Part shown: positions 5,194 to 30,574 of the stretch, piece after piece
Layout of the letters: every line of letters starts with the position of its first letter
Position numbering within the stretch: the first letter of the stretch is position 1
Source of the DNA: an uncultured Ignavibacteria bacterium
Lineage (GTDB): Bacteria > Zixibacteria > MSB-5A5 > RBG-16-43-9
Length of the DNA stretch: 64,000 bases
Direction: 5' to 3'
Assembly (NCBI GenBank): GCA_964511075.1
Contig: CAZEDM010000008.1
Location: 34,470-98,469, forward strand
The notes under the pieces: model-generated
What the model saw: only the letters and a program-made list of their open reading frames with translations
What the model was told of the DNA's origin: nothing
Databases searched by the model: none
Program-made: the position numbers and the translations under genes

Positions 5194-7653
5194 ATGGATA
5201 GAAGTGTTATAACTGCTGAGGAAGCAAAAAAAGCAAGCTTAAAGGAATTATTACAAAAGCTCTCAGCAAACACAAAAGGACTTTCTTCTTCAGAAGCAAG
5301 GGATCGGCTTAAGCTGTACGGTCCTAATGAGATCCCTGAGAAAAAAGTCAATCCCATACTTAAACTATTAAGATACTTCTGGGGTCCTATTCCCTGGATG
5401 ATCGAGGTTGCCGCCATCCTCTCGGTGCTGGTACGCCATTGGCCCGATTTTTTCATCATCCTAGCTTTGCTTTTTGTGAACGCTGTCGTGGGCTTCTGGG
5501 AGGAATTCAAGGCGGGCAACACGATTGCCGCGCTAAAGGCAAAGTTGGCCTTGAAAGCTCGGGTTAAACGGGATGATGCCTGGGGCACAATCCCTGCACG
5601 TGAATTAGTTCCGGGAGATATAATCAGGCTGCGAATCGGTGATATTGTGCCAGCCGACGCCAGATTGCTGGATGGCGATCCGGTTCAGGTGGACCAATCG
5701 GCTCTTACCGGCGAGTCACTGCCGGTGACGCACAAGACGGGTGATGTCGTCTATTCCGGTTCCATAATCAGGCAGGGGGAAATCGATTCGCTTATCTATG
5801 CTATCGGGACAGACACCTATTTCGGCAAAACCGCTCACCTTGTGGAAGAAGCTCACACCGTAAGCCATTTTCAGCGTGCCGTTTTGAAGATCGGAGACTA
5901 TCTTATCGTTGTAGCTCTGATCCTGGTGATCTTGATCCTGTCAGTGGCTCTTTTTCGTGGTGATAATATGCTCACGACCCTTGAATTTGCGTTGATCTTG
6001 ACGGTGGCCGCCATACCCGTAGCCATGCCAACGGTGTTATCGGTCACCATGGCAGTAGGTGCCCGGCTGCTGGCTAAGAGACAGGCAATCGTAAGTCGGT
6101 TAGCCAGTATCGAGGAGATGGCAGGTATAGACGTATTGTGTTCTGATAAGACCGGCACTTTAACTCAAAATAAACTGTCCTTGGGAGATCCTGCGGGGGT
6201 TGTCGGTGTAAGTCGCGATCAGATAATCCTCAGTGCAGCGTTGGCATCACGGGCAGAGGATCAAGACCCTATCGATTTAGCCGTGCTCAGTGGCCTTAAA
6301 GACGACCAGCAGCAGGCCGGATACCAGATCCTTCATTTCATGCCATTTGACCCGGTTCACAAGCGCACGGAGGCCACGGTGAAGGGACCGGGCGGGGAGA
6401 CCTTTAAAGTGACCAAAGGTGCACCGCAGGTGGTCTTGGAGCTGGCGGCCAATGCGGCACAGGTTCGATCTCAGGTCGAGAAAGCGGTAGGAGAATTTGC
6501 AGTACGCGGTTTCCGCTCTCTGGGCGTGGCCCGCACGGACCAGCATAGCCAATGGCAGTTTTTAGGTGTGATTCCATTATACGACCCACCTAGGGAAGAT
6601 TCAAAAACCACCATCAAAACCGCAGGAGAGATGGGTGTAAAAGTCAAGATGGTCACCGGGGATCAGGTGGCCATAGCGAAAGAGACAGCCCGGCAGTTGG
6701 ACCTGGGTACAGATATCCTGGATGCAGCGCTCTTTGCAGATACCAAGCATCACGAGACCGGTCAGCTCGCCAACGCCATCGAGCAGTCTGACGGCTTTGC
6801 TCAGGTCTTCCCCGAGCATAAATATCACATTGTGGATGTGCTTCAGCAACGAGGCCATATCGTTGGTATGACTGGCGATGGTGTCAACGATGCCCCAGCG
6901 CTAAAGGAGGCTGATGCCGGTATTGCAGTTTCCGGAGCAACCGATGCTGCGCGCAGCGCGGCGGATATCGTCCTTTTGACTCCGGGCCTCTCAGTGATAA
7001 TTGATGCCATCAAGGAAAGCCGCAAGATCTTTCAACGAATGGGCAGCTATGCAACCTATCGTATTGCAGAGACCATCCGGGTGTTGTTGTTCATGACCCT
7101 TTCCATCTTAGTTTTTAACTTCTATCCGGTGACCGCTGTGATGATCGTCTTGTTGGCACTGCTTAATGACGGTGCCATCTTGTCCATCGCTTATGATCAT
7201 GTTCGTTATTCCAATAAACCTGAGGTATGGAAAATGACTGAGGTGTTAAGCATAGCCACGGTTCTTGGCATAATGGGAGTATTTGCCTCCTTTGGTTTAT
7301 TTTACCTGGGCGAAAGAGTTTTCCACCTCAACCGAGAAGTCATACAGTCTCTGATGTACCTTAAACTCTCGGTAGCAGGTCACCTGACCATCTTTATCAC
7401 ACGGACCCGAGGATCTTTTTGGTCCTTCCGCCCTGCGCCGATCCTGATAGGAGCAGTCAGCGGAACACAACTGGTAGCGACCTTAATTGCCACCTTCGGT
7501 CTATTTATGGCCCCCATCGGTTGGAAATGGGCACTGTTTGTCTGGGGCTATGCCCTGGCATGGTTTCTGGTGAATGACAGGGTCAAACTGGCAGCATACC
7601 GGATTTTCGATCATCGTCAGCCGGGCTTGCTGACAAAGACGGACAAAAGATGA
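5194..7653 (+). CDS. P-type cation-transporting ATPase, P3A (plasma-membrane H+-ATPase-like) type
   Basis: Phosphorylation motif CSDKTGTLT, hinge motif TGDGVNDAPAL, plus KGAP and MVTGD motifs. N-terminus resembles fungal/plant/archaeal H+-ATPases. 819 aa. Confidence 0.85.
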   Translation: MDRSVITAEEAKKASLKELLQKLSANTKGLSSSEARDRLKLYGPNEIPEKKVNPILKLLRYFWGPIPWMIEVAAILSVLVRHWPDFFIILALLFVNAVVGFWEEFKAGNTIAALKAKLALKARVKRDDAWGTIPARELVPGDIIRLRIGDIVPADARLLDGDPVQVDQSALTGESLPVTHKTGDVVYSGSIIRQGEIDSLIYAIGTDTYFGKTAHLVEEAHTVSHFQRAVLKIGDYLIVVALILVILILSVALFRGDNMLTTLEFALILTVAAIPVAMPTVLSVTMAVGARLLAKRQAIVSRLASIEEMAGIDVLCSDKTGTLTQNKLSLGDPAGVVGVSRDQIILSAALASRAEDQDPIDLAVLSGLKDDQQQAGYQILHFMPFDPVHKRTEATVKGPGGETFKVTKGAPQVVLELAANAAQVRSQVEKAVGEFAVRGFRSLGVARTDQHSQWQFLGVIPLYDPPREDSKTTIKTAGEMGVKVKMVTGDQVAIAKETARQLDLGTDILDAALFADTKHHETGQLANAIEQSDGFAQVFPEHKYHIVDVLQQRGHIVGMTGDGVNDAPALKEADAGIAVSGATDAARSAADIVLLTPGLSVIIDAIKESRKIFQRMGSYATYRIAETIRVLLFMTLSILVFNFYPVTAVMIVLLALLNDGAILSIAYDHVRYSNKPEVWKMTEVLSIATVLGIMGVFASFGLFYLGERVFHLNREVIQSLMYLKLSVAGHLTIFITRTRGSFWSFRPAPILIGAVSGTQLVATLIATFGLFMAPIGWKWALFVWGYALAWFLVNDRVKLAAYRIFDHRQPGLLTKTDKR

Positions 7654-7818
7654 GCCGGCGATTTCAATACTGCTTTGAGCTGTTGTCTTGGGAGATGAAT
7701 TTAGCTGTTCACCTGGAACGGCTATACAGGCCATACCCACAGCAATAAAACCTAATTTTTTAATGCTGGGGCAAAGCTAATACCCAAAGCGACAAAATGA
7801 AGCGTAAAAGGAGTAAAA

Positions 7819-8376
7819 ATGTCGGGAAACTTGAATCGTAAAAACAAAGATAAAACAAGCCGAAGCACAAACATCCCCCAGACTGCCATCAGATCCTTGA
7901 TTGCCGACCTGAGAAGTAATGACGGAATGCTACGCCAGCGATCACGCCAGTCCCTGGTAGCTATTGGGAAACCGGCCGTCGCCTACCTGGTAAAACTGAT
8001 GAGAGACGTAAATGATCAGGTTCGGTGGGAAGCGACGAAAGCGTTGGGTGACATTGGCGATCCGGAAACTGCACCTGCTCTGACAGAGGTTCTGGAGGAC
8101 GAGGAGTTCGATGTCCGCTGGCTGGCAGCTGAGGGCCTGATCGCTCTGGGACGTAAAGGATTAGCCCCATTGCTCAAGGCATTGACGGAACGTCCGCAAT
8201 CGGTCTGGTTGCGAGAGGGGGCACATCACGTTCTTCACAATTTGGCAAAGGCGGGTCCTGATAAAAGGGTGGCATCTTTGCTGCAGGCTCTCGAAAGCGT
8301 CGAGCCCGAAATCGATATCCCCCCGGCAGCACACAAGCTTCTAAGCGCCCTGGGAAAAAAAGAGAGGAAAAACTAA
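7819..8376 (+). CDS. HEAT / PBS-lyase-like repeat protein
   Basis: Repeated LGDIGDPETAPAL...D.VRW.AAEAL-type HEAT-like repeats. Confidence 0.6.
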   Translation: MSGNLNRKNKDKTSRSTNIPQTAIRSLIADLRSNDGMLRQRSRQSLVAIGKPAVAYLVKLMRDVNDQVRWEATKALGDIGDPETAPALTEVLEDEEFDVRWLAAEGLIALGRKGLAPLLKALTERPQSVWLREGAHHVLHNLAKAGPDKRVASLLQALESVEPEIDIPPAAHKLLSALGKKERKN

Positions 8377-8941
8377 TGACTTTAGAGAATACTCTTTTGA
8401 CCTGATCGCCAGCAGCTCCAATTCTCTGCTCTGTTAAAGAAACAATATTCTGAAAGAACAGTAAATACACTTCTGAAATTTAGTAGAACAGAATCTACTA
8501 AGAGAGAGTTCCTAAAAGAAATAAAGATGTAAAAAGCGTAAACAGAAGCTGCACCTGTTGCATTATTTGCCCCCCCCGGTGGGCTAAGCAGGTGAGAGAA
8601 AATAGAAAGAACGCAATATCGAGTAAATGATCCACGAATTAAATATTTAATGGAAAAATCAAAAAGCCTGCTTGGTAGGGGTTTAATATTAAGTTAGAAG
8701 CAAAAAGAATCAAAGATTAATCTGTCCCGTATTTCGCTCCAGTTTAAAGTTAGTATATCAGGCTGGACTGAGGGTTAAGAATCTTGAAGAATCATTGTTG
8801 AACTATTCGGACTGCTGCACTCCGCTCACCAGAAAACAGTCAGTAAAACAGGCGAAAGCAAGGAACCACAGTGACGTAGCGCTATATTTTGGTGATCCGG
8901 TCTCGTTGATCGGAGAAGATGGGCATCTGTCATTTCAAAAA

Positions 8942-9060
8942 AATGCTTGACCTAAGGTAAATTTCTGAATAAGCTTACCTTTGATGTTATGATAAAGCCA
9001 GTTGAGAAACTCGCCCAGTGCCAGCTCATAACCTATTGGATGGTAATGACTTAAGGACAA
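8942..9060 (+). repeat. Copy 2 of the ~120-nt conserved non-coding element
   Basis: Aligns with 4567-4690 in the same orientation. A shorter shared box (TAGCTTGTCT.TG...CAAGAAT) lies upstream of copy 1 (4527-4566) but downstream of copy 2 (9131-9160). Confidence 0.4.
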
Positions 9061-9415
9061 GCTGGGCAGTCCCTTGTCTTTCCTTCAGACAATTCTCAAA
9101 CAACGAATTACATAGAAAGGAGTCGGGTGTAAGATTTACAATAGCTTGTCTTTGCCAATCCAAGAATCAAAATAAAGGAGTATAGGCGGAGGCTACACCC
9201 CGGAAGTAAACTGCTATTCATCTTTTGGATCCATCATATACTCCATAATAGTTCCTTTTGTGAGTACTAAATATTTGGGGGGGGGTAAGGAAGGGTACAT
9301 TCCACTTGTTTAGCTTGACATTTGCTATGGCAGGACTAACTTTAAAAGTGGTACAATAATTGGGGGCAGGCCAAAGTTGGAAGCATTGTGCTTAAACTAA
9401 GAAGAATATCTTAGA

Positions 9416-9548: not shown

Positions 9549-9732
9549 TTGAGTTATATATTTAAATAATTTCTACCCCCTCCTAATTCCAAGTAACACA
9601 AAGTGTTAGACTCGAAAAGATATATATTGGATTTTGGCATACTTCTTGTTGTTATAGTTACTTAAGTATGTAGAGAACGAGAAACTTTTACCTGCCGATA
9701 TATGAACTGTTAGAAATCTAACTCGTAAAAAC

Positions 9733-11394
9733 TTGAAAGGAGTGGTTATGCATTCAAACAAAAGACAATTTAAAATTCAGCACTCCTGGCATTGGATGGT
9801 TGGTTTTTTAGCATTTCTCTGGGTTTTACTAAGAAGCGGTACAAACCCCAAGCGGTTAACCTATCCTTGCCAGAGGGCAGCCATGCCCTTTGCTGCAAAT
9901 TGGTTTCTGGCAGTGATTGCATTTTTTGTGGGGAGTATATTTTTACGAAGATTTGTCAAGTTTTCCGGGGTACTGATTCTGATAGGGGGGGTTATCTGGT
10001 TCACAGGTGCCTTGCCCGAACTTACCAGATCCCAGCTAAATTGCCCAGGGACCCTTCCAGTATGGGAAGTTCCTGATCCCGTGTCAACCGTTTTCGTGAT
10101 GGATTCCCTTCCCCCGACAACTGGTTCTCTTGCTGCGGGTGATGCAACTGTTCCCGACGAGTACCTTTCAGATCCTGCTATGGATTCCATACTTGCCATG
10201 ATGGAGACAAAAGACATTTTTCTTCACAAAACCGCATCCCAGCCGTCCGGCATAGTGGGGACTGAGGATATCGTGATCATCAAGGGGAATTTTCAATGGA
10301 CCAGCAGGAACACCACCAGCACCGACCGCATAAAAGGATTGATCTGGCAGATATTAAATCACCCGGATGGGTTTTCCGGCGAGATTCTGATATGCGACAA
10401 TACGCAGGATATTGGCACGGGAATCAACCAGGCGGACAATAATTCCGAGGATACAGCTCAGTCCCTTCCGGATGTGGTGAGTACCTTTTATGCTAAAGGA
10501 TATCCGGTATATTATCTGGACTGGGCCTATCTCTGGAGTGTAGTGGCATCAGAATATTCTACTGGTGATTATGATGACGGGTATGTCTATGATACGCTGA
10601 CAAAGATATCCTACCCCAAGTTTCGATCCCCATCGGAGGATTACTATATTTCTCTGCGCTACGGGATCTGGGATTCGCTTTCGGCTGAGTATGATTCCTC
10701 CCGTCTCTGCATAATTGATTTCCCCGTGTTAAAATCTCACATGATGGCTGGTGCTACAATCGCTGTTAAAAACTGGATAGGAGTGCTTACTACAGCATAT
10801 GCTAATCAGCGCTATGGGAGCTGGGATAATATGCATTACTTTTATTTCTGGGGTGATTATGCCCTAGTCGCACGGCTGATCGCCGTAACCTACCCCAAAC
10901 TCTCAATAGTTGATGCGACCTGGACTTCAACCTATAATGCGAATGATCTTGACTGGCTGGCAAATACGAATATGCTGGTAGCTTCCACCGACCCTGTTGC
11001 GGCTTCCTGGTATGCAGCAAAATTCATACTCACACCTGTTGCTCGTTTTCGTCATTATACCAATCCAGAAACTGGTTATTATAGTACGACTCTGAATAGA
11101 TGGACAGCCTACCTGAGCGATTCAGCAGGAGTATCCTGCACAAAAGATTCTGCTGAAATCTCTGTTTATGACCGGAGAGTTATGGGCCCCTTATACACTT
11201 GCGGTGATACTGACGGAGATGAAGAGTTAAATGTTTCAGACGTGATATATTTAATCAACTACCTGTTCAAGGGAGGTTCTCCTCCTGATCCAGCCCAGAC
11301 TGGTGATGTAAATTGCGATGGTGAAACAACAGTGTCTGATGCGATCTTTTTAATCAATTATCTTTTCAAAGGCGGGGGGGAACCATGTAGCTAA
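9733..11394 (+). CDS. Membrane-anchored protein with a C-terminal duplicated dockerin-like (type I, Ca-binding) module
   Basis: N-terminal hydrophobic helices. C-terminus has GDTDGDEELNVSDVIYLINYLFKGGSPP and GDVNCDGETTVSDAIFLINYLFKGGGEPCS, matching D-x-[DN]-x-D-G-x5-D dockerin repeats. Central domain unassigned. Confidence 0.6.
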   Translation: MKGVVMHSNKRQFKIQHSWHWMVGFLAFLWVLLRSGTNPKRLTYPCQRAAMPFAANWFLAVIAFFVGSIFLRRFVKFSGVLILIGGVIWFTGALPELTRSQLNCPGTLPVWEVPDPVSTVFVMDSLPPTTGSLAAGDATVPDEYLSDPAMDSILAMMETKDIFLHKTASQPSGIVGTEDIVIIKGNFQWTSRNTTSTDRIKGLIWQILNHPDGFSGEILICDNTQDIGTGINQADNNSEDTAQSLPDVVSTFYAKGYPVYYLDWAYLWSVVASEYSTGDYDDGYVYDTLTKISYPKFRSPSEDYYISLRYGIWDSLSAEYDSSRLCIIDFPVLKSHMMAGATIAVKNWIGVLTTAYANQRYGSWDNMHYFYFWGDYALVARLIAVTYPKLSIVDATWTSTYNANDLDWLANTNMLVASTDPVAASWYAAKFILTPVARFRHYTNPETGYYSTTLNRWTAYLSDSAGVSCTKDSAEISVYDRRVMGPLYTCGDTDGDEELNVSDVIYLINYLFKGGSPPDPAQTGDVNCDGETTVSDAIFLINYLFKGGGEPCS

Positions 11395-11446
11395 TGTGAG
11401 AGATCAACAAACTGGGATGAGAGAAGAGATAGCAGAAGTTTCAGGA

Positions 11447-11983
11447 TTATGATTGCTCTTTGTTCCTTTTTAATAGTGCTTGGCAGGTGGAACAGAAGTT
11501 TTTCGTTTTAAAGTCAATTTCCTCAGCATAGCTTGTAGGGTACATCACACAATTCGGGGTCCGGCAGTGTATCAGGCCAAAAGTATGACCCAGCTCGTGC
11601 ACTGCCTCCTTTTCCAGCCGTTCTTTTAGTCTCTGAGGATTTTTGGGCAGTCCATATAGCTCGTCTCTTAAACGGTAAGTGGAAACCACGGCAGTTTTCC
11701 CGTTCAGCTGAGCTTCTCCGAAAACAAAAGTCAAGACGGGGATATACAGATCCACCTGCGTCACAGCCAGGATTTTGCAGTTGCCTTCTGGAGCCTGGGT
11801 TAGAAGCTGGGATAATATCCAGGTGGAGTTATATTGATTGCGGACAGGATCTCTGCCCTGCTCCAAAAGGAAAGAGCTATCCGAAATGGCAACCGGAAGG
11901 ATAAAGATTTCCTTCAATACCAAGGAAATATTATCCAGGAGGTCCTTGTCCGAGAATTGAAGTGGAAGTATGTATAGTCGCAC
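11447..11983 (-). CDS. amzA: Archaemetzincin-family zinc metallopeptidase
   Basis: HELGHTFGLIHC...C...CSTC, i.e. HExxHxxGxxH followed by a Cys4 zinc ribbon, the archaemetzincin signature. 178 aa. Confidence 0.7.
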   Translation of the reverse strand: MRLYILPLQFSDKDLLDNISLVLKEIFILPVAISDSSFLLEQGRDPVRNQYNSTWILSQLLTQAPEGNCKILAVTQVDLYIPVLTFVFGEAQLNGKTAVVSTYRLRDELYGLPKNPQRLKERLEKEAVHELGHTFGLIHCRTPNCVMYPTSYAEEIDFKTKNFCSTCQALLKRNKEQS

Positions 11984-11985: not shown

Positions 11986-13338
11986 CTATTTCCGCAAGCC
12001 GTATTTTTCGATCTTATTGTAAAGCGTAGCTCTGTCGATCTTCAGAACCTCAGCTGTCCGAGTTATGTTCCATCCCATCTCCTCCAGCAGGCACTTTATG
12101 TGTATCTTCTCGACTGCCTCCAGGCTCCTGTCCTCCGGAACGTATTTCGGACACGGTAAGATGGGGAGGTCATCCACAGAGATGCAGGATTCCTTAGCTA
12201 CAACTATTGCTCTCTCCACGGCATTTTTTAACTCCCTTACGTTTCCCGGCCAGTCATAGGTTGTGAGCTTATCCAGGGCTTCTTTGGAAAAGCTATTTAC
12301 CGGTTTGTTCAAACTGGTCGCTATCTTTTTTAGAAAGAAATTGCACAGAAGCGGGATGTCGGAACGTCTTTCCCTTAAAGGTGGAATAGAGATGGAGAAT
12401 ACGTTTAGCCTGTAATAGAGATCTTCTCTGAACGCTCCCTGCTTTACCGCCAGCTCCAGGTCCCGGTTGGTAGCGCAGATCAATCGAAAGTCGACCTTGA
12501 TGATCTCGTCTCCCCCTACCCGGGCGAACTGCTTGGTCTCAATTACCCGCAGTAGGTCTGTCTGAGATTTGGGGTCGATATTTCCGACCTCGTCCAGAAA
12601 GATGGTTCCTCCATTGGCCATCTCGAATTTTCCCTTGCGCCGATATAATGCCCCGGTGAAAGCTCCCTTCTCGTGACCGAAGAACTCGCTTTCCGTAAGT
12701 CCCTCGGTTAGGCCTCCGCAATTTACCGTGATGATAGGGAAAAATCTCCTGGAGCTTTTGGAATGAATGGCCCGGGCGATAAGCTCCTTGCCGGTTCCGC
12801 TTTCACCTTTAATCATCACACTTGTGTCGGTATTAGCTACAGTGTCAATCATATCAAAGACCTTCAGCATAGCAGAGCTCTCCCCGATGATCTGATCCAC
12901 CTCATAGAGCTCCTGGATCTGTTCTTTAAGCTGGATGTTCTCCGTAAGCAGGCGTTTTTGTTTTATAACGTTGTTTACCAGATGAGAGAGGTAATCAGGA
13001 TCTATTGGCTTGGTGATATAGTCGTATGCTCCTTCCTTGAGAGATTTTACAGCGGTATCAACCGTGGCAAAGGCCGTGATCATGATGATAGTTGCGTTGG
13101 CGTCGATATCTTTGATCCTCTGCTGTAGTTCAATTCCGTCCATACCAGGGAGTTTTATGTCCAGGAATACGATATCCCAGAGACCCGGCTTTATCTTCTT
13201 CAGAGCCTCGGTGGCATCTGCGGCAGAGTCTGCCAGGTAACCGTCTTCCTTAAACCACTCAGTTAAAGAATCCCTCACACTGAATTCATCATCCACAATC
13301 AAAATGCTTACCGAATCTTTATCCTTTTTGAGATTCAT
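11986..13338 (-). CDS. Sigma-54-dependent two-component response regulator (NtrC/Fis family)
   Basis: Receiver domain (ILIVDDE...D). AAA+ sigma-54 interaction motifs GESGTGKE, GAFTGA-like (GAFTGA) and ESEFFGHEKGAFTGA. C-terminal helix-turn-helix. Confidence 0.85.
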   Translation of the reverse strand: MNLKKDKDSVSILIVDDEFSVRDSLTEWFKEDGYLADSAADATEALKKIKPGLWDIVFLDIKLPGMDGIELQQRIKDIDANATIIMITAFATVDTAVKSLKEGAYDYITKPIDPDYLSHLVNNVIKQKRLLTENIQLKEQIQELYEVDQIIGESSAMLKVFDMIDTVANTDTSVMIKGESGTGKELIARAIHSKSSRRFFPIITVNCGGLTEGLTESEFFGHEKGAFTGALYRRKGKFEMANGGTIFLDEVGNIDPKSQTDLLRVIETKQFARVGGDEIIKVDFRLICATNRDLELAVKQGAFREDLYYRLNVFSISIPPLRERRSDIPLLCNFFLKKIATSLNKPVNSFSKEALDKLTTYDWPGNVRELKNAVERAIVVAKESCISVDDLPILPCPKYVPEDRSLEAVEKIHIKCLLEEMGWNITRTAEVLKIDRATLYNKIEKYGLRK

Positions 13339-13375
13339 TGCTTACCTCCAATCATACATCATTCTGTGATTTTAC

Positions 13376-14932
13376 TTAAATTTTAAAGTAGGATCCTCTT
13401 GGCTTCTTTCCTCCACAATGTGCCGGAAGCTGTATGGAGAAAGTGGAACCTTCGCCCACTACTGAATGGGCGTCGATTTTTCCGTTGTGCCTTTCAAGAA
13501 TTCCATAACATACAGACAAACCCAACCCCAGTCCCTTGCCCTCTTTCTTGGTGGTATAGAAGGGCTCAAAGATGTGTGGCAAGTCTGCAGGGGAGATACC
13601 CGGACCCGTATCCTTAAAGTCGATCCTTACATTTTTCCTCTCGGTATCGCAGGAAGTTCTCACAGTTATGCTGCCTCCTTTAGTCATAGCGCCTACCGCA
13701 TTGTCCAGTATAGCCAGGAAGGCTTGCTGGATCTGTTCCCTGTCGCAGATCACTTCTATTTTTCCTTTCTGGTAAGCTTTGATCAGTTCTATCTTATGTA
13801 GTTTCAAATGATGCTCCATTAATTGACTACAGCGGTCCAGGATCTGGTGCAAATCTACTGGAGCAAATTCTCCTATCTGTTTTTTGGAGAAAAGCAGAAG
13901 GTCCTTCACTATATTTCCACATCTATGTGTCTCATCCGCTATCAAAGACATCTTCGTCTGGATGTATGAGAGCTGTTCTGAGGGCAGGTTCAGGGAGGAG
14001 AGTCTCTTCTGGATAAGTCTGGCATAGGTTAGTACTCCTTCCAGAGGATTGTTTAGTTCATGCGCTACGCTGGCGGAGAGTTTTCCCAGGGAAGCCATCT
14101 TCTCGACCTGAATCAAGTGCGACTGCATGCGGTCCAGTTCCTCACGTGCTTTCTTCAGCTCACTGGTCATGCGGTTGAAAGAATTGGACAGTTCCCCGAT
14201 CTCATCTTTCCGCTGAAGGGGAATAGTGTAATCCAGGTTCCCCTGCGCAATCGCCCTTGTCCCCTCGGTTAATTTATGGACCGGGGCGCGAATAAGTGTG
14301 AAAACCAGGAATCCGGTTACGGAAAGAACGCTGAGCACCAGAATCACAGATGCCAATATCGTCTGTCGGCGACTGTGGGAGATATCGGCGTCCACATCAT
14401 TCAAAGACATCTGTACATCCAATACCCCCAGAATGAATTTTTTATCCGGAGACAAATGACAGCCAGAGCCGTAACAGGCGGTTTCGTTTTCAATGGGGTT
14501 GATCAACGCCAAGACCCTATGTCCGTCAGGAGACTTTATGATCCGATGGCGTTGTTCCCTGGCAAGAGCTTTAAGTGGTTCGGGAAAGCGGTGGCATACC
14601 TGGCAGGCCTCAGATTTAATATTGACTTTGTTCATTCTTTCTTCCGGACGGGTGGAGAAGATAATCTCGCCCTTTTTGTTATAAATCCTGATGACCTCAA
14701 AACCTGGCATCTGGCTGAAGTTTTTAAAGATCAGATGGATATCCTCTTTACGATTTATAAGCATACTGTAATGAGTGGATTCCTTTATCAGATCAGTGGT
14801 TCTAAGTGCAGCTAATTGCACCTGATCCAGCAGGTCGTTGGCCTCGCTTTTGACGTTTATGTAGGTAAAAGCAGCCAGCCCCAGGAACATAACCAGAAAC
14901 AGGGCGATGAAAAACTTTAATCCTAAAGGCAT
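13376..14932 (-). CDS. Sensor histidine kinase (HAMP-HisKA-HATPase) with haem c motifs in the periplasmic sensor domain
   Basis: Two transmembrane segments flank a ~170-aa periplasmic domain containing CQVCH (CxxCH) and CYGSGCH (CX4CH). H-box SVAHELNNPL. G-boxes at the C-terminus. Confidence 0.8.
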   Translation of the reverse strand: MPLGLKFFIALFLVMFLGLAAFTYINVKSEANDLLDQVQLAALRTTDLIKESTHYSMLINRKEDIHLIFKNFSQMPGFEVIRIYNKKGEIIFSTRPEERMNKVNIKSEACQVCHRFPEPLKALAREQRHRIIKSPDGHRVLALINPIENETACYGSGCHLSPDKKFILGVLDVQMSLNDVDADISHSRRQTILASVILVLSVLSVTGFLVFTLIRAPVHKLTEGTRAIAQGNLDYTIPLQRKDEIGELSNSFNRMTSELKKAREELDRMQSHLIQVEKMASLGKLSASVAHELNNPLEGVLTYARLIQKRLSSLNLPSEQLSYIQTKMSLIADETHRCGNIVKDLLLFSKKQIGEFAPVDLHQILDRCSQLMEHHLKLHKIELIKAYQKGKIEVICDREQIQQAFLAILDNAVGAMTKGGSITVRTSCDTERKNVRIDFKDTGPGISPADLPHIFEPFYTTKKEGKGLGLGLSVCYGILERHNGKIDAHSVVGEGSTFSIQLPAHCGGKKPRGSYFKI

Positions 14933-15385
14933 ACTCCTCTCTTTGCTACCATACTCTTAGTCCGAATAACCTTTTTCCACTGAGGATAATATATATCTCT
15001 CCTGGCGGAATGAAAAGGGATTTTTATCTTCCAAATCAGAGAATGAGATTGAAACAGAGCAACCGTTAGGTGGATTATGATTGAGTTACCTTATAATAAA
15101 TCCCCCTCAAAGAGGTATGGCAAGAAAATTTTTTCAGCAGGAGGCATTTCTTCATCCCGGCATCTGTTGAGCCAGGGAATCTATCCAGGCTTAAGTCCTC
15201 TTCTGTCTCTGGCTTCCGGAAAACAGTGCGTAGGCTACCCTTTATTGGATAACTCTTAATCAGGAGGTGCTCCCCATCTATTATTTCGTTTTTGCCCTAT
15301 TTAAAAAGCTTGCTTAATTCTTTTAAAAAATAGATATTAAGCCAAGAATAAGTGACTATCCGCTTATTTTTAAAATATCAAATTT

Positions 15386-16897
15386 ATGTCAAAACTCCTT
15401 TTGATTTTCCTCCTTATATTTCTTTTTAGCATACCTCTCTTTGCCCAATCCGTTGACACTGCCTGGGTGAGAAGATATACCGGTTTAATAAATGGAGACG
15501 ATAGAGCAACTGATTTAGTCCTGGATAGTGTGGGGAACATCTACCTGACCGGATACTGTGAGCAAAATGTGAGTGGAAATATCAATACCGGTTTTGTTAC
15601 TATAAAGTACTATCCGGATGGGAATACTGCCTGGATAAGAAGCTATGCCGGGGAGGATAACTCAGACGATTATGCTGAGGCTTTAGCCCTCGATGATTAC
15701 GGCAATGTGTACGTGACTGGTGCGGGCGATGTAAATTCAGATGCCGGATCCTACAGTGGCTACCTCACAATAAAATATTTACCTAACGGAGATACTGCCT
15801 GGGTGAGATACTTCAGGGAAGAGGTAACGGAAAAAAACCTGGGTGCTTATGCTATAGCTGTGGATAATTGCGGAAACGTCTACGTGACAGGAACAGGTGC
15901 CACTATAGGATACGACACCGACGGAGACTGCCTATGGATTGACTCTTCCGACTTTGTTGGCCAGGACATAGCCATAGATGATTCCGCTTACGTCTATGTT
16001 GCCGGTTACAGTAAAGGGGATGGAACATATTATGATTATGTCACGGTGAAATATTCTCCTGAGGGGGATACTGTCTGGACGAGAAGATATAATGGGCCGG
16101 GAAATGGCGATGACCGAGCCTGTGCAGTAGCTGTTGACGATTCAGGTAAAGTGTACGTGACCGGTTCAAGCTTAAGTCTGGGAACATCCTATGATTATGC
16201 CACCGTCAAATATCACTCCAACGGGGATATCTGCTGGGTTAGGAGGTATAATGGGCCGGCTGATGAGTGGGAACAAGCATCTGCCTTGGCGGTAGACGAC
16301 TCAGGCAACGTATATGTAACCGGGTTCAGTCAGGGGACAGGGACATCTCACGATTATGCTACAATTAAATACCACTCCAGTGGAGATACAGCCTGGCTGA
16401 GAAGATATAATGGGGCTGCAAACTCCTCTGACCGGGCCTGGGATATTGCTATTGATGATCTGGGTAATTCCTATGTGACAGGCTATAGTTCAGACACGGA
16501 AAGCTCAGACGATTATGCTACCGTTAAATACAGTCCTAAAGGAGAACGACTCTGGGTAGAGAGATACAACGGGCCGGCTAATTCCTTTGATCGCCCCTCT
16601 GCTATAGCTGTGGATAAGCTCAAAAATGTATATGTGGCTGGTTGGAGTAATGGAGGCGAGACCTCTAAGGATTATACCACTATAAAGTATATTCAGTTTT
16701 TGCGGGGAGATACTGACAGTAACGGGTATCTATCCTTCTCGGATATAGTCTATCTGATAAATTATCTTTTCAAATTCGGCTCCCTTCCGTATCCCTATCA
16801 GTCAGGAGACACAAATTGTGACGGTAAGGTCAGCCTTTCTGATGCGGTGTATCTGAAGGCATATCTTTTAAAAATGGGGGCACCGCCCTGTAGATGA
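15386..16897 (+). CDS. Secreted SBBP beta-propeller repeat protein with C-terminal dockerin-like module
   Basis: Signal peptide. About 8 repeats of the pattern Y.T.KY...G...W.RRYNG....D.A.A.AVD.SGNVYVTG. C-terminus GDTDSNGYLSFSDIVYLINYLFKFG / GDTNCDGKVSLSDAVYLKAYLLKMGAPPCR. Confidence 0.7.
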   Translation: MSKLLLIFLLIFLFSIPLFAQSVDTAWVRRYTGLINGDDRATDLVLDSVGNIYLTGYCEQNVSGNINTGFVTIKYYPDGNTAWIRSYAGEDNSDDYAEALALDDYGNVYVTGAGDVNSDAGSYSGYLTIKYLPNGDTAWVRYFREEVTEKNLGAYAIAVDNCGNVYVTGTGATIGYDTDGDCLWIDSSDFVGQDIAIDDSAYVYVAGYSKGDGTYYDYVTVKYSPEGDTVWTRRYNGPGNGDDRACAVAVDDSGKVYVTGSSLSLGTSYDYATVKYHSNGDICWVRRYNGPADEWEQASALAVDDSGNVYVTGFSQGTGTSHDYATIKYHSSGDTAWLRRYNGAANSSDRAWDIAIDDLGNSYVTGYSSDTESSDDYATVKYSPKGERLWVERYNGPANSFDRPSAIAVDKLKNVYVAGWSNGGETSKDYTTIKYIQFLRGDTDSNGYLSFSDIVYLINYLFKFGSLPYPYQSGDTNCDGKVSLSDAVYLKAYLLKMGAPPCR

Positions 16898-17124
16898 GAA
16901 ACTTAGATTAATCTACTCTTTTGTCTCTGGGCTTCAGAGAAAAATCCTTAAAATAGTGCTTGACAGGCTTAATAACACTCTTAAATTGAATTTATAGGAA
17001 GAGATAGGAAAGCAATATCATCACAATTGAGAAAATGGGAAATTTTACGGAGTTTCCTCATCCCTGCTATAAACAATTTAATTTCTAAACAGATCACATT
17101 TACCTCTGAAGAAAGGAGGAAAAA

Positions 17125-18666
17125 ATGGATTCAAAAAATTTATCTTTTGGAAGAGGTATGGGCTTGCTCTCCATTTTATTTGCGCTCGTAGGTTTTATCT
17201 ATGCCCCGCTTATAATCGCAGATGAGGATCCAAAAGATGCTGAAAGATCTTCTCAGGAGGAGCAAACTCTTATAGCTCCCGCTGACACCGTTATCTGTGG
17301 TGATGTAAATGGAGTTGGAGTTCCACCCTACGGGAACCTGACCCTGGCAGACGCCGTTTATCTGTGGAGCTTTCTTTTCAGAGACGGGCCCTCCCCAGTG
17401 CCGGACACATGCGTGGGCGATGCAAATGGTGATGGTACTGTTAGTGTTACTGACTGGATGGTTCCAATCAAATATCTGTACAAGGATACAGATCCTCCTG
17501 TAGATTACTGCTGTGATTCTGCCACACAGAGACAGCTTCCAGCCATTCAGGCACCTGGGAATACGGCAGTGTATGCAGATACTTTATATAATTTCATGAG
17601 GGTAGAGAATACCGTTGCCAGACCAGGCGCCCAGGGACACGTGATCAACGTCTATGGTTCGTGGAATGCAGAGCTGGGAGCATACGGTATGGTGTTGCTT
17701 TTCGATACCAGCAAGATCGATATAGTTGAGGTTTCCCCTACGGGGACAGCAGGCGAAGAGGGTATGCTTATTTCCAATTATCTGGGAAATTACTCACCTT
17801 TGAAAGCTGCTCTCCATCTGGATAATTACATCCCTGCTGACTCGGGCATCTTATTCAAAATCGTGGTTAATGTAAAAGAGACTGCTCCTCTGGGCGAGAC
17901 AGACCTGATTTTAGTTAACCAGCCTGGAACACCGCCTTGGATGTGTGATTATGCTTTGTCTGACGGGATTAATGATATATTTCCAGAATTGATGTCTGGA
18001 ACATTGAGCATAGAGGTGATCTGCGGTGACATTAATGGAGATGGTCTGGTGTCGGCCTCAGATGTGGTATATCTGCTCAATTATCTCTTCAAGGGAGGTT
18101 CTCCGCCGCTCTGCGCACCTGGACCTTATCTTGCCTGTGGAGACGTTAATTCCGATGGCCAGGTATCGATGAGTGATGTTGTCTATCTGATCAGCTATCT
18201 TTTCAAAGGGGGACCTCAGCCAGATTGCTCCTCTCCCATTGGCACTCTTATTCATCACTCTGATTGCAAAGGATTCGCCCTGAGAAGCTCTGTGGACAGT
18301 ATTTCACCAGATCAGGGCTGTATGGAATATTATTATGATGGGGAGGGTATTCTTGAGCTCAGACATATCAATGCAGGATTTAACTGCTGTCCAGATGATA
18401 TAATAGCGGATATCAGGTTGGAGGGCAATGTCATCTACATAGAGGAAAGAGAGTCTCTGAGTAACCCGTGTCATTGCCTTTGTCTTTTTGATTTAGACCT
18501 CCGGGTCATTAACCTGGAGCCCGGAGAGTATGTGATAAGTGTAATAGAACCTTATGTAGCTGAGGATGAGGCGAAATTAGAATTTCCGGTTAGTCTTTCT
18601 TTTTCACCTGTAGAGGGGGTATACTGTGTTGGAAGAAGCAATTACCCCTGGGGCGTCTGGGAATAA
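17125..18666 (+). CDS. Secreted dockerin-cohesin-dockerin protein (mini-scaffoldin-like) with C-terminal Cys-rich domain
   Basis: Signal peptide. N-terminal dockerin-like pair (CGDVNGVG... / GDANGDGTVSVTD...). Central segment ...TVARPGAQGHVINVYGSW...LLFDTSKIDIVEVSPTGT...SGILFKIVVNVKETAPLGETDL matches the cohesin profile. Second dockerin pair (GDINGDGLVSASDVVYLLNYLFKGGSPP / GDVNSDGQVSMSDVVYLISYLFKGGPQP). Confidence 0.55.
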   Translation: MDSKNLSFGRGMGLLSILFALVGFIYAPLIIADEDPKDAERSSQEEQTLIAPADTVICGDVNGVGVPPYGNLTLADAVYLWSFLFRDGPSPVPDTCVGDANGDGTVSVTDWMVPIKYLYKDTDPPVDYCCDSATQRQLPAIQAPGNTAVYADTLYNFMRVENTVARPGAQGHVINVYGSWNAELGAYGMVLLFDTSKIDIVEVSPTGTAGEEGMLISNYLGNYSPLKAALHLDNYIPADSGILFKIVVNVKETAPLGETDLILVNQPGTPPWMCDYALSDGINDIFPELMSGTLSIEVICGDINGDGLVSASDVVYLLNYLFKGGSPPLCAPGPYLACGDVNSDGQVSMSDVVYLISYLFKGGPQPDCSSPIGTLIHHSDCKGFALRSSVDSISPDQGCMEYYYDGEGILELRHINAGFNCCPDDIIADIRLEGNVIYIEERESLSNPCHCLCLFDLDLRVINLEPGEYVISVIEPYVAEDEAKLEFPVSLSFSPVEGVYCVGRSNYPWGVWE

Positions 18667-18712
18667 CTGGATAGGACTACGATGGCAGAAAAAGACATTA
18701 TATAATTAATTT

Positions 18713-19156
18713 TCAGCTTTTGGTTGCCTGACTCGTTTTCAGCACATCCTGAATTCTTTGATCGATATCTTTTTTGGTGAAAGGTTTCTTCATATAAGCC
18801 TTTGCTCCAGTCTTAAGCATCTCTTCAACTTCCTGTGTCCCTACATGGCCGGTAACTCCAATTATCTTAGCGCTTTGATCTAACTCGAGCAATTCCTTGG
18901 TTAACTCTATACCATTCATCTCCGGCATGGAGATATCCGCGAATACGATATCGAACTTTTCCTTTTGATAGATCTCCAGTGCTTTTTTAGCTTCAAAGGT
19001 AACGGAGACGCTGTGGCCATCAAACTCCATCAGCTTTCCCAGGACCTCAGCCACTACTTCCTCATCATCTACCACTAATATTTTTAAAGGCTTTTCTTTC
19101 ATCGCCCCCACCTGAAAGAGTAGAGATGCATCGCAACGCGTCTCCACAAATTTCAT
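18713..19156 (-). CDS. Single-domain response regulator (CheY-like receiver)
   Basis: ILVVDDE...D...K receiver motifs. 147 aa. Confidence 0.8.
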   Translation of the reverse strand: MKFVETRCDASLLFQVGAMKEKPLKILVVDDEEVVAEVLGKLMEFDGHSVSVTFEAKKALEIYQKEKFDIVFADISMPEMNGIELTKELLELDQSAKIIGVTGHVGTQEVEEMLKTGAKAYMKKPFTKKDIDQRIQDVLKTSQATKS

Positions 19157-21852
19157 TTGCTAAGACTATTATTGTTTATCTGAGAACTCCTTATAAGTCT
19201 GGATATTGTCGAACACAGAAGTTCATTTTTAAAGGGTTTGACCAGAACCTCATCTGCCCCAGCCTCTCTGGCTTTATTCTCTTTTTCTTTCAATATATGT
19301 CCTGTTATCGCTATTACCTTCGTATCCTTATTCTCGTCCTTGATCGTCTTTATCAGCTCTATCCCATCCATATCCGGCATGGCTATGTCTGATAATACTA
19401 AATCAAACCTGTCTTTCCTTATATGTTCTAATCCTTCTTTAGCTTTCAGAAAAGCTCTTACCTTATGTCCTCTGGACTCCAGGAACTTCTTCAGACCAAA
19501 GGATATGGCTTTCTCATCATCCACCAGTAATATCTTCAATTTCCCCTCGCTCTCCCCGGAGGATTCCATCTCAGTATGCCGAATAGATCCGCAGGGTAGA
19601 TTTTTGGAGACCGGAATTGATAGGGTGAACCTGGTCCCTTTACCTACCTCTGATGCTACCTCAATCTTCCCTTTATATCCGTCTATTATCCCATAGGAGA
19701 GGAAAAGGCCCAGGCCGGTTCCGGGGATATCGCCTTTGCCCAGAGCTCCCTTGGTGGTAACGAAAGGCTCAAAGATTTTCCCTTTTATCTTTTCTGGGAT
19801 GCCGCAACCCGTGTCCTGGAAGATGATTTGAATATTCTCTCCAACTGGCTCAGCCTGTATGATTAATTTACCTCCTTTTTCTCTCATCGCATCCCGGGCA
19901 TTGGTAACCATATTTAAGAAGACCTCAGACAGCTGACCCGCATCACAGCATATCTTGGGCAAGGGCTTGAAATTCTCCACTATATGGATATTAAGCTTCT
20001 CCAGCTCTCGTCGGGTGATGGCTAAAACGCTTTTCAAGGGTTCGGTTACATCTATTAGCTCCTTCTTTGCTTCCTGGTTGCGTGAGAAAGCCAGAAGGTT
20101 TCGGGTTATGCTGGAGGCACGATAAGAGTTATCCGCGATAACCTTAAAACATTTCTTAATCTGCTCGAGCTCATCAGTAATTAATCCTAATTCTGCATTA
20201 GCCAGCATGCCGGCTAAGATATTATTGAACTCATGTGCAATGCCATAAGCTAAGGTTCCCACCGCGGCTAATTTCTCGGTCCGGATTAATTGCTGCTGGA
20301 GCTGTTTTCTTTCAGTTATGTCTCGAATAATACCAAAAGTAGCAGTTAGTACCCCATCCTTGTCAAACCAGGGTGCGGCAGTTAAAAGAAGATAGCGTCT
20401 TTCTCCTTTGGCAGTGATGATCTCTATCTCATAAGAGCCTTTTTCTCCTGTATGACGTCTTTTTGTCTGTTCTCGTATAAATTCAAACTGTTCTGAAGAA
20501 GTGAAATCTTTAAAATTTCTTCCGACTAGTCCCCCTTCTGGAACTCCGAAGATTTTCTCGGCGGAGGGGTTAGCAAAGATGAAATTCTCCTCCAGGTCGG
20601 CAGTAGCAATGCCCTCACCCTGATTTTCAATCAGGAGCCGGTATTTTTTCTCGCTTTCCCGTAGAGCTTCCTCAGCTCTCCTGAGATTGGAGATATCAAT
20701 AAAGCTCTCTATCAGATAACCTTTGCCTTTACGGGTTATGGGAACCACACTTTTCAGTATAGGTATTTCATCCTTGTTGATATTGAGCAATACCCGTTCC
20801 GAGCTGTCCACTTCCTGCCAGAGGTCGGTTATGGGGCACTTTCCCACCTCCGCAGGACAGACGAAGTTGTGACAGATACGACCGACGAGTTCCTCTTTGG
20901 ATTCACCAATCATCTCCACAGCATAGGAATTTGCATCAACGATCGTATGTGTTTCCGGATCTATGGCTATGATACCGGCATGGATTGAATCCAATAAGAT
21001 CTTTAGATATTCTTCATTTTCCCTTAATTCCTCTTCTGCTTTCCTTCGCTCTGAGATATCTGTGAAGAAGCCAACACTACATTCTTTGCCGTTCATGCTA
21101 ACTTTTGCGGAGCTGACATCCACATATATTATATTTCCATCTTTTCTTAAACAGGGTAGATTCTCACATAAGGTCTTCTCTCCTCTTGCCTGGGCTTCAA
21201 ATTCAGAGATAACATACTCCAACTTTTCCCTGGGGTGAATGTCAGCCACGCTCATTCGTTTTAATTCATCTTCAGTGTACCCTAAAATTCTACATATTGC
21301 CGGATTGGCATACTTAAACTCTTTGGTCTGGATGTCAGCCACAAGTATCCCCTCAGCTGTCCCCTCAAATAACGCCCGGTATCTCTGCTCAGATTCTCTT
21401 AATGTCTCCTCTGCTTTCTTTCGCTCGGTGATGTCCCAAAAAATGCCCAATACGCCAATAGTGTTCCCCTTTTCATCTTTGATAGGCGTTTTGACGGTAT
21501 GAACAAATACTGCCTGACCCTCCTGAAGATATTCCTCTTCTAAATCCTCTGTCTTACCGGTTTGCATAATCCTTTTGTCGTCTGCTCTGTATTTCTCAGC
21601 CAATCCCTTGGGAAAAAAATCATAATCTGTCTTACCGGTAATCTCATTGGGCAGTATTTTTAAATCCCGAGCGTAGTTCTCATTGCAGGATACATAAATT
21701 AAATTCTTATCTTTGAAAAATATCTTCTGCGGAAGATTTTCAAGTAATGTTCTATACTTGCTCTCGCTTGTTCGTAGCGCCTCCTCTACCTTTTTGCGCT
21801 CTGTGATGTCCGTTTCCCCCCCTGCGAGATTTTCCCTGTTCTTCTTGCTCAT
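19153..21852 (-). CDS. Hybrid sensor histidine kinase with multiple PAS domains and a C-terminal receiver
   Basis: At least four PAS-like repeats (TERK..EE.LR.SE..YR.L.E), HisKA H-box AHEFNNIL, HATPase G-boxes, C-terminal ILLVDDE receiver. Overlaps the downstream receiver gene by 4 nt. Confidence 0.85.
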   Translation of the reverse strand: MSKKNRENLAGGETDITERKKVEEALRTSESKYRTLLENLPQKIFFKDKNLIYVSCNENYARDLKILPNEITGKTDYDFFPKGLAEKYRADDKRIMQTGKTEDLEEEYLQEGQAVFVHTVKTPIKDEKGNTIGVLGIFWDITERKKAEETLRESEQRYRALFEGTAEGILVADIQTKEFKYANPAICRILGYTEDELKRMSVADIHPREKLEYVISEFEAQARGEKTLCENLPCLRKDGNIIYVDVSSAKVSMNGKECSVGFFTDISERRKAEEELRENEEYLKILLDSIHAGIIAIDPETHTIVDANSYAVEMIGESKEELVGRICHNFVCPAEVGKCPITDLWQEVDSSERVLLNINKDEIPILKSVVPITRKGKGYLIESFIDISNLRRAEEALRESEKKYRLLIENQGEGIATADLEENFIFANPSAEKIFGVPEGGLVGRNFKDFTSSEQFEFIREQTKRRHTGEKGSYEIEIITAKGERRYLLLTAAPWFDKDGVLTATFGIIRDITERKQLQQQLIRTEKLAAVGTLAYGIAHEFNNILAGMLANAELGLITDELEQIKKCFKVIADNSYRASSITRNLLAFSRNQEAKKELIDVTEPLKSVLAITRRELEKLNIHIVENFKPLPKICCDAGQLSEVFLNMVTNARDAMREKGGKLIIQAEPVGENIQIIFQDTGCGIPEKIKGKIFEPFVTTKGALGKGDIPGTGLGLFLSYGIIDGYKGKIEVASEVGKGTRFTLSIPVSKNLPCGSIRHTEMESSGESEGKLKILLVDDEKAISFGLKKFLESRGHKVRAFLKAKEGLEHIRKDRFDLVLSDIAMPDMDGIELIKTIKDENKDTKVIAITGHILKEKENKAREAGADEVLVKPFKNELLCSTISRLIRSSQINNNSLSK

Positions 21853-22347
21853 CAGGCTATGCTCCCCTTATCTTTCTCTCTTTAGCGTTCCTAATTTTTT
21901 TCTAATCTCTCAAATTCGAGCCATTTAAGATAATTCTCAAATATCATCTGACAGATAGAAGAGTTTTTTCCTCTGTAGAAGAAAATATGCGAAAAGAGGC
22001 TCCAACATATATCTCTTCTCAGTTTATTATACCTCAGGCTATACCCTTATCAGGTTTTTCGAAAGGGTATAACCACTATACCTGAAAAGACTTAATAGGA
22101 TCTACTGTGTAAGACTTCGATTGATAAGATTGACAAATTGCCCCCCGTTTTTTAAGATAAATAAGATCACGGCATTCTTCTTTATTTATCGGAATTATGA
22201 AGAATAAGATTAGCTAACTCCGTTTGTGAAAAGAACATCCGGAATGAACTGCAGAGAGCATTTTGAAAAAGCAGGAACGGCTTTCAAACCCGTGCCTACA
22301 GATTTCAACCTAACCCTGACCCACTCCTAAGGGGAGAGGGGATGACA

Positions 22348-23595: not shown

Positions 23596-23727
23596 AAAAC
23601 CTCCTGCAGAATTCTTGATAAAATCATCTTTTAAAAAGCTTATCGGAGTACAAATCTTTAGAGTTGCCAGAATTATTTTGTGGGGATTAGAGGCAAAGCT
23701 AAAGCTTTACACTCCATACTTTCCTCT

Positions 23728-23979
23728 TTATATCTTCACAAACTCCTTGAGTAGAATAACGATTTTATTTACCGTATCAAAAGTTTCCGGCGTTGCCTTG
23801 GCATCCGGTATCTGGATTTTGTATTTTTTCTCCAGAAAAGTTTTCAAAGAAACCATAGAGAAAGAATCCACTATGCCGGAGGAGATCAAAGGGGTGTCCT
23901 CCTTGACCTCCATATCGCTATCCTCTTCCAGAAACTCTTTTTTTACATAATCGATGATGATTTTTTTTGCATCTTCCAT
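23728..23979 (-). CDS. Acyl carrier protein-like
   Basis: 83 aa, acidic, phosphopantetheine attachment motif GIVDSFSMV (DS*F). Confidence 0.65.
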   Translation of the reverse strand: MEDAKKIIIDYVKKEFLEEDSDMEVKEDTPLISSGIVDSFSMVSLKTFLEKKYKIQIPDAKATPETFDTVNKIVILLKEFVKI

Positions 23980-24002
23980 CTGTTACTCCTTTCTGCCTGT
24001 GT

Positions 24003-25878: not shown

Positions 25879-25992
25879 CTTAAGAGGATTTTAGCAAGTC
25901 AAAAAACGGGTAGAATGCGGTTATCTTAGATTATCTACCATTCACTATGAACCATAAACCAAAAAAATCCCCCAGGGGAAGAAAAGCTTTTC

Positions 25993-27202: not shown

Positions 27203-27215
27203 AAAGATCGTTTTA

Positions 27216-29389: not shown

Positions 29390-29391
29390 GG

Positions 29392-30543: not shown

Positions 30544-30574
30544 ATCTCCTTTTTAGTTTTTATTTTACGTGTAT

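Follow-up and report, generated by a model that had tools for sequence, protein, structure and literature searches.

A kinase–regulator–protease cassette with paired haem motifs

We analysed a 64,000-nucleotide stretch of DNA from an uncultured bacterium of the Zixibacteria (contig CAZEDM010000008.1; the whole stretch is called the window below), with the focus on a sensor histidine kinase and the genes linked to it. The kinase gene lies on the reverse strand at 13376–14932 and was delimited from its open reading frame and Pfam matches. Its product of 518 residues comprises a first transmembrane helix (TM1), a single-Cache-like (sCache-like) domain with two predicted haem sites, a second transmembrane helix (TM2), HAMP (residues 214–260), HisKA (282–352, with H291) and HATPase_c (397–504). 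The two hydrophobic segments, at roughly residues 5–25 and 191–213, are separated by ~165 polar residues, and HAMP starts right after the second, an arrangement that, judged by sequence, is classical for a periplasmic sensor domain. A search of the full-length kinase against Pfam and NCBIfam gave no sensor-domain match in the first 210 residues. The identical protein is also encoded on Logan contig SRR14802573_6131.

Within the sensor domain (residues 26–190; 14363–14857, reverse strand) lie two putative haem-attachment motifs: CQVCH (C110, C113 and H114; 14591–14605, reverse strand) and, 43 residues downstream, CYGSGCH (C153, C158 and H159; 14456–14476, reverse strand). Both fall between the membrane helices, at residues 110 and 153, where a first-pass annotation, made from the sequence alone, had placed them in a periplasmic loop.

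Scanning genomes with the kinase returned 23 orthologous loci, most of them on records labelled Zixibacteria and some under other bin labels, with sensor domains 73–87% identical to the query; the same scan returned one relative from Calditrichota (L026), 48% identical. By the names that close relatives carry, the organism belongs to Candidatus Zixiibacteriota. After the kinase, in all 17 Zixibacteria loci whose retrieved stretch extends past it, comes a gene for a response regulator, represented here by an NtrC-type protein of 450 residues (11986–13338, reverse strand). It combines a REC domain (PF00072) with an acidic pocket and D59, an AAA+ sigma-54 interaction domain (PF00158, 225.7 bits) with GAFTGA at residue 225, an AAA lid and a Fis-type helix-turn-helix (HTH_8, PF02954), which confirms the earlier assignment of an NtrC-type sigma-54 activator next to the kinase. 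There is little doubt in our view that the kinase signals to this adjacent regulator.

The third gene (11447–11983, reverse strand) encodes a zinc metalloprotease of the archaemetzincin family (NF033823, 166.8 bits against a cut-off of 145; PF07998). Among the Zixibacteria loci covering all three genes, kinase, regulator and archaemetzincin are syntenic in 16; at L021 kinase and regulator are present, with no archaemetzincin match. The protease gene also occurs in the distant relatives L028, L029, L031 and L032, and in L029, from Ignavibacteriae, the order is kinase, archaemetzincin, regulator. Archaemetzincin is a conserved third gene of the cassette.

Conservation of the two haem motifs

To gauge the family, kinase residues 1–215 were searched with HMMER against 1.84 billion cluster representatives, which yielded 1213 proteins with E ≤ 1e-3, each standing for a cluster at 50% identity; at the stricter limit of E ≤ 1e-10 there were 586. 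Such sensors had been described in the first-pass annotation as rare, a view that the size of this single family does not bear out. The names attached to the clusters of 10 representatives were generic only, for example 'NtrC family sensor kinase' or 'ATP-binding protein'.

We counted the motif pair in the best 149 family representatives, each less than 50% identical to the rest. A CXXCH followed 41–50 residues downstream by a C-X2-4-CH was present in 141 of them, with a spacing of 43 in 101; the second motif was CX4CH in 134 of the 141, CX3CH in four and CX2CH in three. Of the eight representatives without the pair, six are fragments shorter than 190 residues in which truncation or a frameshift affects the region of the motifs. 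In a 136-sequence family alignment C153 is kept in 134 sequences, C158 in 136 and H159 in 134, and the position of M57 is Met in 135. Closer to the query, both motifs are present in 22 of 22 complete Zixibacteria orthologue sensors. This conservation is far beyond chance, and the haem-sensor idea, for which loss of the cysteines among orthologues had been named in advance as refuting, survives the examination. Because the constraint is on Cys...Cys-His with a tolerated CX2–4 spacing, it has the character of a haem-c attachment signature and not of a disulfide or a zinc site.

Just one close relative, P0001, has CQVCR in place of the first motif; its kinase is frameshifted and without TM1, and most of the regulator is lost. 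We rejected this His-to-Arg change as evidence against haem binding, since the locus is a pseudogene. At L001 the orthologous kinase and regulator (10001–11790) are a pseudogene with TM1 deleted, the kinase frameshifted and the last ~106 residues of the regulator left. Adjoining it are an intact paralogous two-haem kinase (7746–9335) and sigma-54 regulator (6348–7745), followed by a REC–GcvH fusion and Hdr/Nuo-like genes.

Homology to structurally solved haem-c sensors

Periplasmic c-haem sensors were described in Geobacter between 2006 and 2008. A profile built from 34 sensor domains of the present family and searched against PDB sequences matched two of these, 3b42 (GSU0935, E = 2e-7) and 3b47 (GSU0582, E = 1e-4). 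The match was reached by the family profile only: a PDB search with the sensor domain as a single sequence gave nothing meaningful. The single Geobacter CXXCH aligns with the second motif ('NPIxNEpsCsnaaCH' in the family against 'PFPNEQRCQ--SCH'), with C153...C158-H159 falling on C-Q-S-C-H of 3b42 and two extra residues here; CYGSGCH is therefore the homologue of the proven haem site of GSU0935 and GSU0582, and CQVCH, which is absent from the mono-haem Geobacter sensors, is an additional, second haem site.

The haem of GSU0935 is ligated by His144 and Met60; the Met becomes a ligand when the haem is reduced and is released when it is oxidised or binds nitric oxide (NO) or carbon monoxide (CO) (PMC8396549). 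In the profile alignment H159 pairs with the proximal His144 (residue numbers from PMC8396549), and the conserved family Met ('ysMl') pairs with chain residue 26 of 3b42, which is Met60 under the offset of 34 fixed by His144. By this alignment and its conservation, M57 (codon at 14762–14764, reverse strand), on the N-terminal helix, is the predicted distal ligand.

All 34 sampled family members match PF21563 (Mcp40H-20_sensor) at E ≤ 1, the best at 1.9e-9; the query scores 18.9 bits and a relative, P0008, 28.1 bits, against a gathering cut-off of 27. For PF11845 the query had no significant match, and the eight of 34 members that match it do so at E no better than 0.071.

An AlphaFold2 model of the sensor domain, made from 43 sequences, had a predicted local distance difference test score (pLDDT) of 82.5 and a predicted template modelling score (pTM) of 0.77. 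It opens with two helices, the N-terminal one long, and a pair of strands. A connector modelled with low confidence follows, with CQVCH on its short helix; after strands three and four comes the CYGSGCH loop, also of low confidence, and then a fifth strand and the C-terminal helix. The predicted fold is that of a single Cache domain, Cache/PAS-like. A side match may bear on the origin of the added site: family profile positions 58–97 (query residues ~84–123) weakly resemble a haem-binding segment of the cytochrome c nitrite reductase NrfA (1fs7 residues 280–318, E = 0.0035), which would be compatible with recruitment of a cytochrome fragment into a Cache scaffold.

From the motifs and the alignments we consider it highly likely that the sensor domain binds haem c. 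Motif conservation, homology to the Geobacter sensors and the domains of the regulator support the proposed pairing of a sigma-54 activator with a periplasmic sensor kinase of the c-haem type.

The covalent attachment of haem c would require maturation machinery, and the window encodes it: a Cys-type CcmE (CPSKY; 44905–45270, forward strand; PF03100, 63 bits) and, directly downstream, CcmF (45271–47451, forward strand), the pair already recognised in the first-pass annotation. CcmE and CcmF are the haem-attachment machinery needed for the proposed kinase haems, and the seven multihaem cytochromes of the window likewise speak for a capacity to mature them. The CX4CH spacing likewise recurs, as had been pointed out, in a bona fide cytochrome of the window, as CLRSDCH at residue 114 of the 18-motif protein encoded at 42671–44677.

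A respiratory operon with a conserved sigma-54 promoter

Matches to Pfam, haem motifs and orthologous clusters together delimit a predicted target operon at 26366–32094 on the reverse strand. In transcriptional order it encodes a conserved small membrane peptide of 31 residues (MSILLGLLFTVLAMGIGLLRGRKK...; 31999–32094), two GcvH-like proteins (31313–31972 and 30575–31246), a cytochrome c with 13 CXXCH motifs (29392–30543), an NrfC-like 4Fe-4S protein (28460–29389), NrfD (27216–28463) and a third GcvH-like protein (26366–27202), all on the same strand. The GcvH-like proteins (PF01597) differ at the N-terminus, which is a membrane helix in two of them and a Cys-rich segment in the remaining one; the small peptide is similar to the N-terminus of the first GcvH-like protein.

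A six-gene cluster orthologous to 31972–26366 directly precedes the kinase, on the same strand, in 10 orthologous loci. Relative to these abutting loci, ~11 kb of other genes (14933–26365) is inserted between cluster and kinase here. Besides two dockerin proteins, the inserted interval encodes a REC protein, a hybrid kinase with multiple PAS domains, an AMP-binding enzyme and an aminotransferase.

Related modules accompany the kinase at more distant loci. In L027 and L028, genes for cytochrome c, Fer4 and NrfD are followed by kinase and sigma-54 regulator, with the archaemetzincin gene included in L028. The cassette of L029 adjoins GcvH-like, NrfD, Fer4 and molybdopterin oxidoreductase genes. 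L030 has two copies of a GcvH-like gene, then Fer4, NrfD, a cytochrome c3-like gene and another GcvH-like gene ahead of the kinase. Kinase, sigma-54 regulator and archaemetzincin occur together in L031 and L032, with a GcvH-like gene upstream in L031.

A loose sigma-54 consensus had 41 matches in the window against 48 expected; because this window-wide count is at chance level, we accepted promoter calls only where orthologues agree. Upstream of the first cluster gene, such agreement was found for a predicted -24/-12 promoter at 32155–32170 (reverse strand; CGGCACTCTATTTGCC), which reads cGGCAC-N5-TTGCc with GG at -24 and GC at -12. Boxes with intact GG and GC are present in the corresponding 500 bp of nine of the 10 orthologous loci, compared with a background of 7.8% per 500 bp measured on all retrieved sequence. 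The naive binomial tail is 1e-9, a figure that overstates independence since the loci are related. From one orthologous promoter to another the box keeps GG and GC but changes at its variable positions; in L003, the tenth locus, the corresponding site reads TGGTAT-N5-TTGTA. The distant loci L030 and L031 also have a box; the promoters of L027 and L028 are unclear.

As a negative control, we looked within 400 bp upstream of the kinase and found a box in one of 20 loci. A box 227 bp upstream of the kinase in the window (15159–15174) was accordingly rejected as a sign of autoregulation.

At 32280–32372, 110–200 bp upstream of the -24/-12 box, are two predicted activator-binding palindromes of the form GTWGAA-N3-TTCWAC, one exact (32280–32294) and one with a single mismatch (32358–32372). 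No other site in the 64-kb window fits this form with one mismatch or fewer, and in a scan of the window together with the first 26 loci (375 kb) matches of this quality were confined to this promoter position. In L030, whose sensor is 40% identical, the box TGGCCC-N5-TTGCT is preceded upstream by GTCGAAAAACTCGAC, GTCGAAAATCTCGAC and GTTGAATTTCTCTAC, the last of which is the distal palindrome of the window (32358–32372) read on the operon strand. As far as sequence can tell, 32155–32372 has the organisation of a textbook sigma-54 promoter of the enhancer-dependent kind, and this organisation accompanies the kinase–regulator pair.

The GcvH-like/multihaem/NrfC/NrfD operon at 26366–32094 is probably the target of the kinase and regulator, and it is better supported in that role than the surface-protein genes named in the first-pass annotation.

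Comparison with described systems

The sensor domains of GSU0935 and GSU0582 (PDB 3B42 and 3B47; PF21563) resemble that of the kinase in lying between two membrane helices ahead of HAMP, in their Cache/PAS-like fold, in the Cys...CysHis that follows an 'NPIxNE' strand and in the distal Met on the N-terminal helix. They differ in having one haem, on CXXCH, and a chemotaxis output through methyl-accepting chemotaxis proteins (MCP), whereas the present protein has CX4CH at that site, an extra CXXCH ~43 residues upstream and a histidine-kinase output. Mono-haem relatives have been reclassified as sCache_heme in a 2026 preprint (PMC12889525), and the DUF3365/Tll0287 sCache_heme family (PF11845) differs from the kinase in being mono-haem. 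Nearer in motif content are Adeh_2011 and Adeh_3383 of Anaeromyxobacter dehalogenans, which by description are GSU0935/GSU0582 homologues with an extra haem motif (PMC3831638); these are uncharacterised and, unlike the kinase, have a chemoreceptor output.

Two Geobacter proteins, GSU0591 and GSU0599, are listed with two CX2-4CH motifs, and GSU0599 is a two-component protein (PMC8396549). The sigma-54 regulator BccR (GSU0598) is required for induction of the cbcBA cytochrome operon at low or falling redox potential (bioRxiv 10.1101/2021.04.15.440034). GSU0599 with BccR in Geobacter sulfurreducens parallels the present locus in joining a sensor with two haem motifs to a sigma-54 regulator, with a sigma-54-dependent membrane cytochrome operon nearby; the likeness is drawn from published descriptions and not from sequence comparison, and the adjacency of GSU0599 and bccR is read from their locus tags. 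The targets differ, CbcBA consisting of a dihaem b and a seven-haem c cytochrome in place of NrfC/NrfD, a 13-haem cytochrome and GcvH-like proteins, and an archaemetzincin gene sets the present cassette apart. On this literature, GSU0599/BccR appears to be the closest precedent. By its motif pair, the kinase would be a new member of a recognised, biochemically unstudied two-haem subgroup.

For the target operon, the nearest comparison is with the periplasm-facing, NrfCD-bearing redox complexes of the Hmc, Qrc and Nhc types, which share a multihaem cytochrome c, an NrfC-like 4Fe-4S protein and NrfD; the likeness to Hmc extends to L030, which carries a domain like DVU_0533 (HmcD). What distinguishes the operon from them is its three membrane-anchored or Cys-rich GcvH-like proteins and the small membrane peptide, and we found no described complex with its composition.

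Proposed mechanism and alternative explanations

We propose, at a probability of roughly 0.62, that a two-haem Cache sensor kinase acts through its sigma-54 regulator on the operon at 26366–32094. The observed parts of this reading are the motifs and their conservation, homology to haem-c sensors, the fold, gene linkage, and the conserved promoter and palindromes, to which haem attachment, the signal, the ligand switch and contact of the regulator with DNA are added by inference. The periplasmic single-Cache domain would carry two covalent c-type haems matured by the Ccm system. Haem 2, on CYGSGCH, would have H159 as proximal ligand and M57, on the long N-terminal helix continuing from TM1, as sixth ligand, and would be the counterpart of the single haem in GSU0935 and GSU0582. 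Haem 1, on CQVCH with H114 proximal, would probably either take in or relay electrons or else be a second site of sensing. The trigger would be a shift in haem oxidation state, fed from the periplasmic cytochrome pool, or a small ligand that binds; either would put the Met on or off the iron and move the helix, and kinase activity would be set by this movement as it is passed on via the transmembrane segment and HAMP. Once phosphorylated, the regulator would assemble at the two palindromes (32280–32372) and activate sigma-54 RNA polymerase at 32155–32170, driving the operon. As the signal, we lean slightly towards redox state over NO or another ligand.

Several points weigh against this proposal. 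The target operon is not adjacent to the kinase gene but lies ~11 kb from it, with its promoter ~17 kb away. Binding of the regulator to the palindromes is taken from their co-occurrence, and there is no rpoN gene within the window. In the AlphaFold model pLDDT falls to 56–68 in exactly the two haem loops. There is no nameable sixth ligand for haem 1: the His two residues after motif 2 (H161), kept in 119 of 136 family members, is Ser in this kinase and H, D, N, S, R or P among Zixibacteria orthologues, and because of this variation we rejected it as the ligand for the Zixibacteria clade. No two-motif sensor is known to have been characterised biochemically. Finally, receptor-fused mono-haem sCache_heme domains point to NO sensing rather than redox sensing (PMC12889525).

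This last point leads to the strongest of the alternatives, in which architecture and output are the same and the signal is a diatomic ligand, above all NO, that displaces the distal ligand. GSU0582 and GSU0935 bind NO whether oxidised or reduced, and CO in the reduced state (PMC8396549), the receptor-fused sCache_heme domains act as NO, not O2, sensors (PMC12889525), the loss of H161 here could leave haem 1 five-coordinate and accessible to ligands, and the window encodes a five-motif cytochrome that matches PF13435 (cytochrome c554 and c-prime; 50302–51732). On the other hand, the genes conserved beside the kinase form a general NrfCD/multihaem module, L029 having NrfCD with a molybdopterin oxidoreductase in that place rather than genes for NO detoxification, and BccR, the closest genetic precedent, responds to falling redox potential (10.1101/2021.04.15.440034). 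We regard an NO-type signal as a possibility of modest weight, with odds of perhaps one in four against the redox and other options.

A second alternative, the output model of the first-pass annotation, has the regulator drive the adjacent surface-protein genes from a sigma-54-like box (TGGCAT-N5-TTGT, TGGCATACTTCTTGTT) at 9635–9650 on the forward strand. Three genes for secreted proteins with type I dockerins, all on the forward strand, do flank the kinase pair here, with DUF362 (9733–11394), an SBBP beta-propeller (15386–16897) and a cohesin-like segment (17125–18666), respectively. The box is present 83 bp upstream of the TTG at 9733 and ~98 bp upstream of a likelier ATG at 9748, with three TCGCGA palindromes 90–220 bp farther upstream. 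It lacks the C of the -12 GC; the target promoter of L003 also has TTGT at -12, and the deviation is not disqualifying by itself. Against this model, a pattern of this kind is at chance level in the window, no high-scoring box on the correct strand lies ahead of 15386 or 17125, no GTWGAA-N3-TTCWAC palindrome lies near the dockerin genes, and those genes are not conserved beside the kinase in ~20 orthologous loci. We judge the box to stand outside the kinase system and this model to be improbable.

Least tenable is a thiol- or metal-based periplasmic sensor, its cysteine pairs without haem and acting as redox-active disulfides or in metal binding: direct haem evidence is wanting for the two-motif subfamily and both loops are modelled with low confidence, but both motifs retain a His immediately behind their second Cys (H159 in 134 of 136; C-X2-4-CH in 141 of 149), motif 2 can be aligned position by position with a haem-c site established by crystallography, whose distal Met is also conserved, and variation in CX2-4CH spacing is typical of haem-c sites, those of the window cytochromes included.

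Returning to the two-haem redox reading, a bolder version can be sketched, which we offer as speculation. In it, a three-part signalling cassette found across Zixibacteria, Ignavibacteria and other uncultured lineages would control an undescribed GcvH-like/multihaem/NrfCD respiratory module, haem 1 would wire haem 2 to the cytochrome pool and the protease would be a genuine signalling component. If true, the link through haem 1 would let the kinase read the reduction level of the electron-transfer chain directly.

To our knowledge, haem-c sensor domains are among the few redox-cofactor routes known for reading conditions outside the cytoplasmic membrane, and biochemical study so far has been of mono-haem chemoreceptor domains only. 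New here are the distinction between a homologous and an added motif site, the family size, archaemetzincin as a conserved partner, and a predicted regulon with its promoter and palindromes. For an uncultured phylum this regulon prediction is unusually concrete: it names one respiratory operon, the conserved sigma-54 promoter ahead of it and a pair of defined palindromes. The locus opens a route to how, in sediment bacteria that cycle metals and sulfur, the state of electron transfer controls which respiratory complexes are expressed, and would help explain the potential-dependent BccR/CbcBA switch of Geobacter.

Other genes of the window

Seven multihaem cytochromes are encoded in the window. 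One with nine haem motifs (32787–35438, forward strand) has PKD-like domains and a C-terminal sorting domain of type IX secretion, and a group at 39599–44677 (forward strand), beside ccmEF, comprises a Rieske protein, a split cytochrome b and nine-haem and 18-haem cytochromes; these genes are candidates for extracellular electron transfer. CcmE ends in ...VKCPSKYQ, with Cys where canonical CcmE has its haem-binding His (HxxxY), which we take to be the variant Ccm system of Desulfovibrio and archaea.

The three dockerin proteins hint at a cellulosome-like surface assembly in a Zixibacterium. Upstream of the DUF362–dockerin gene, the segment 9417–9541 holds the TCGCGA-centred palindromes TTCGCGAA, TCGCAAATATTCGCGA and TCGCAAAGACTCGCGA, three of only four TCGCGA sites in the window; they differ from the palindromes of the target promoter and are probably a site for another regulator.

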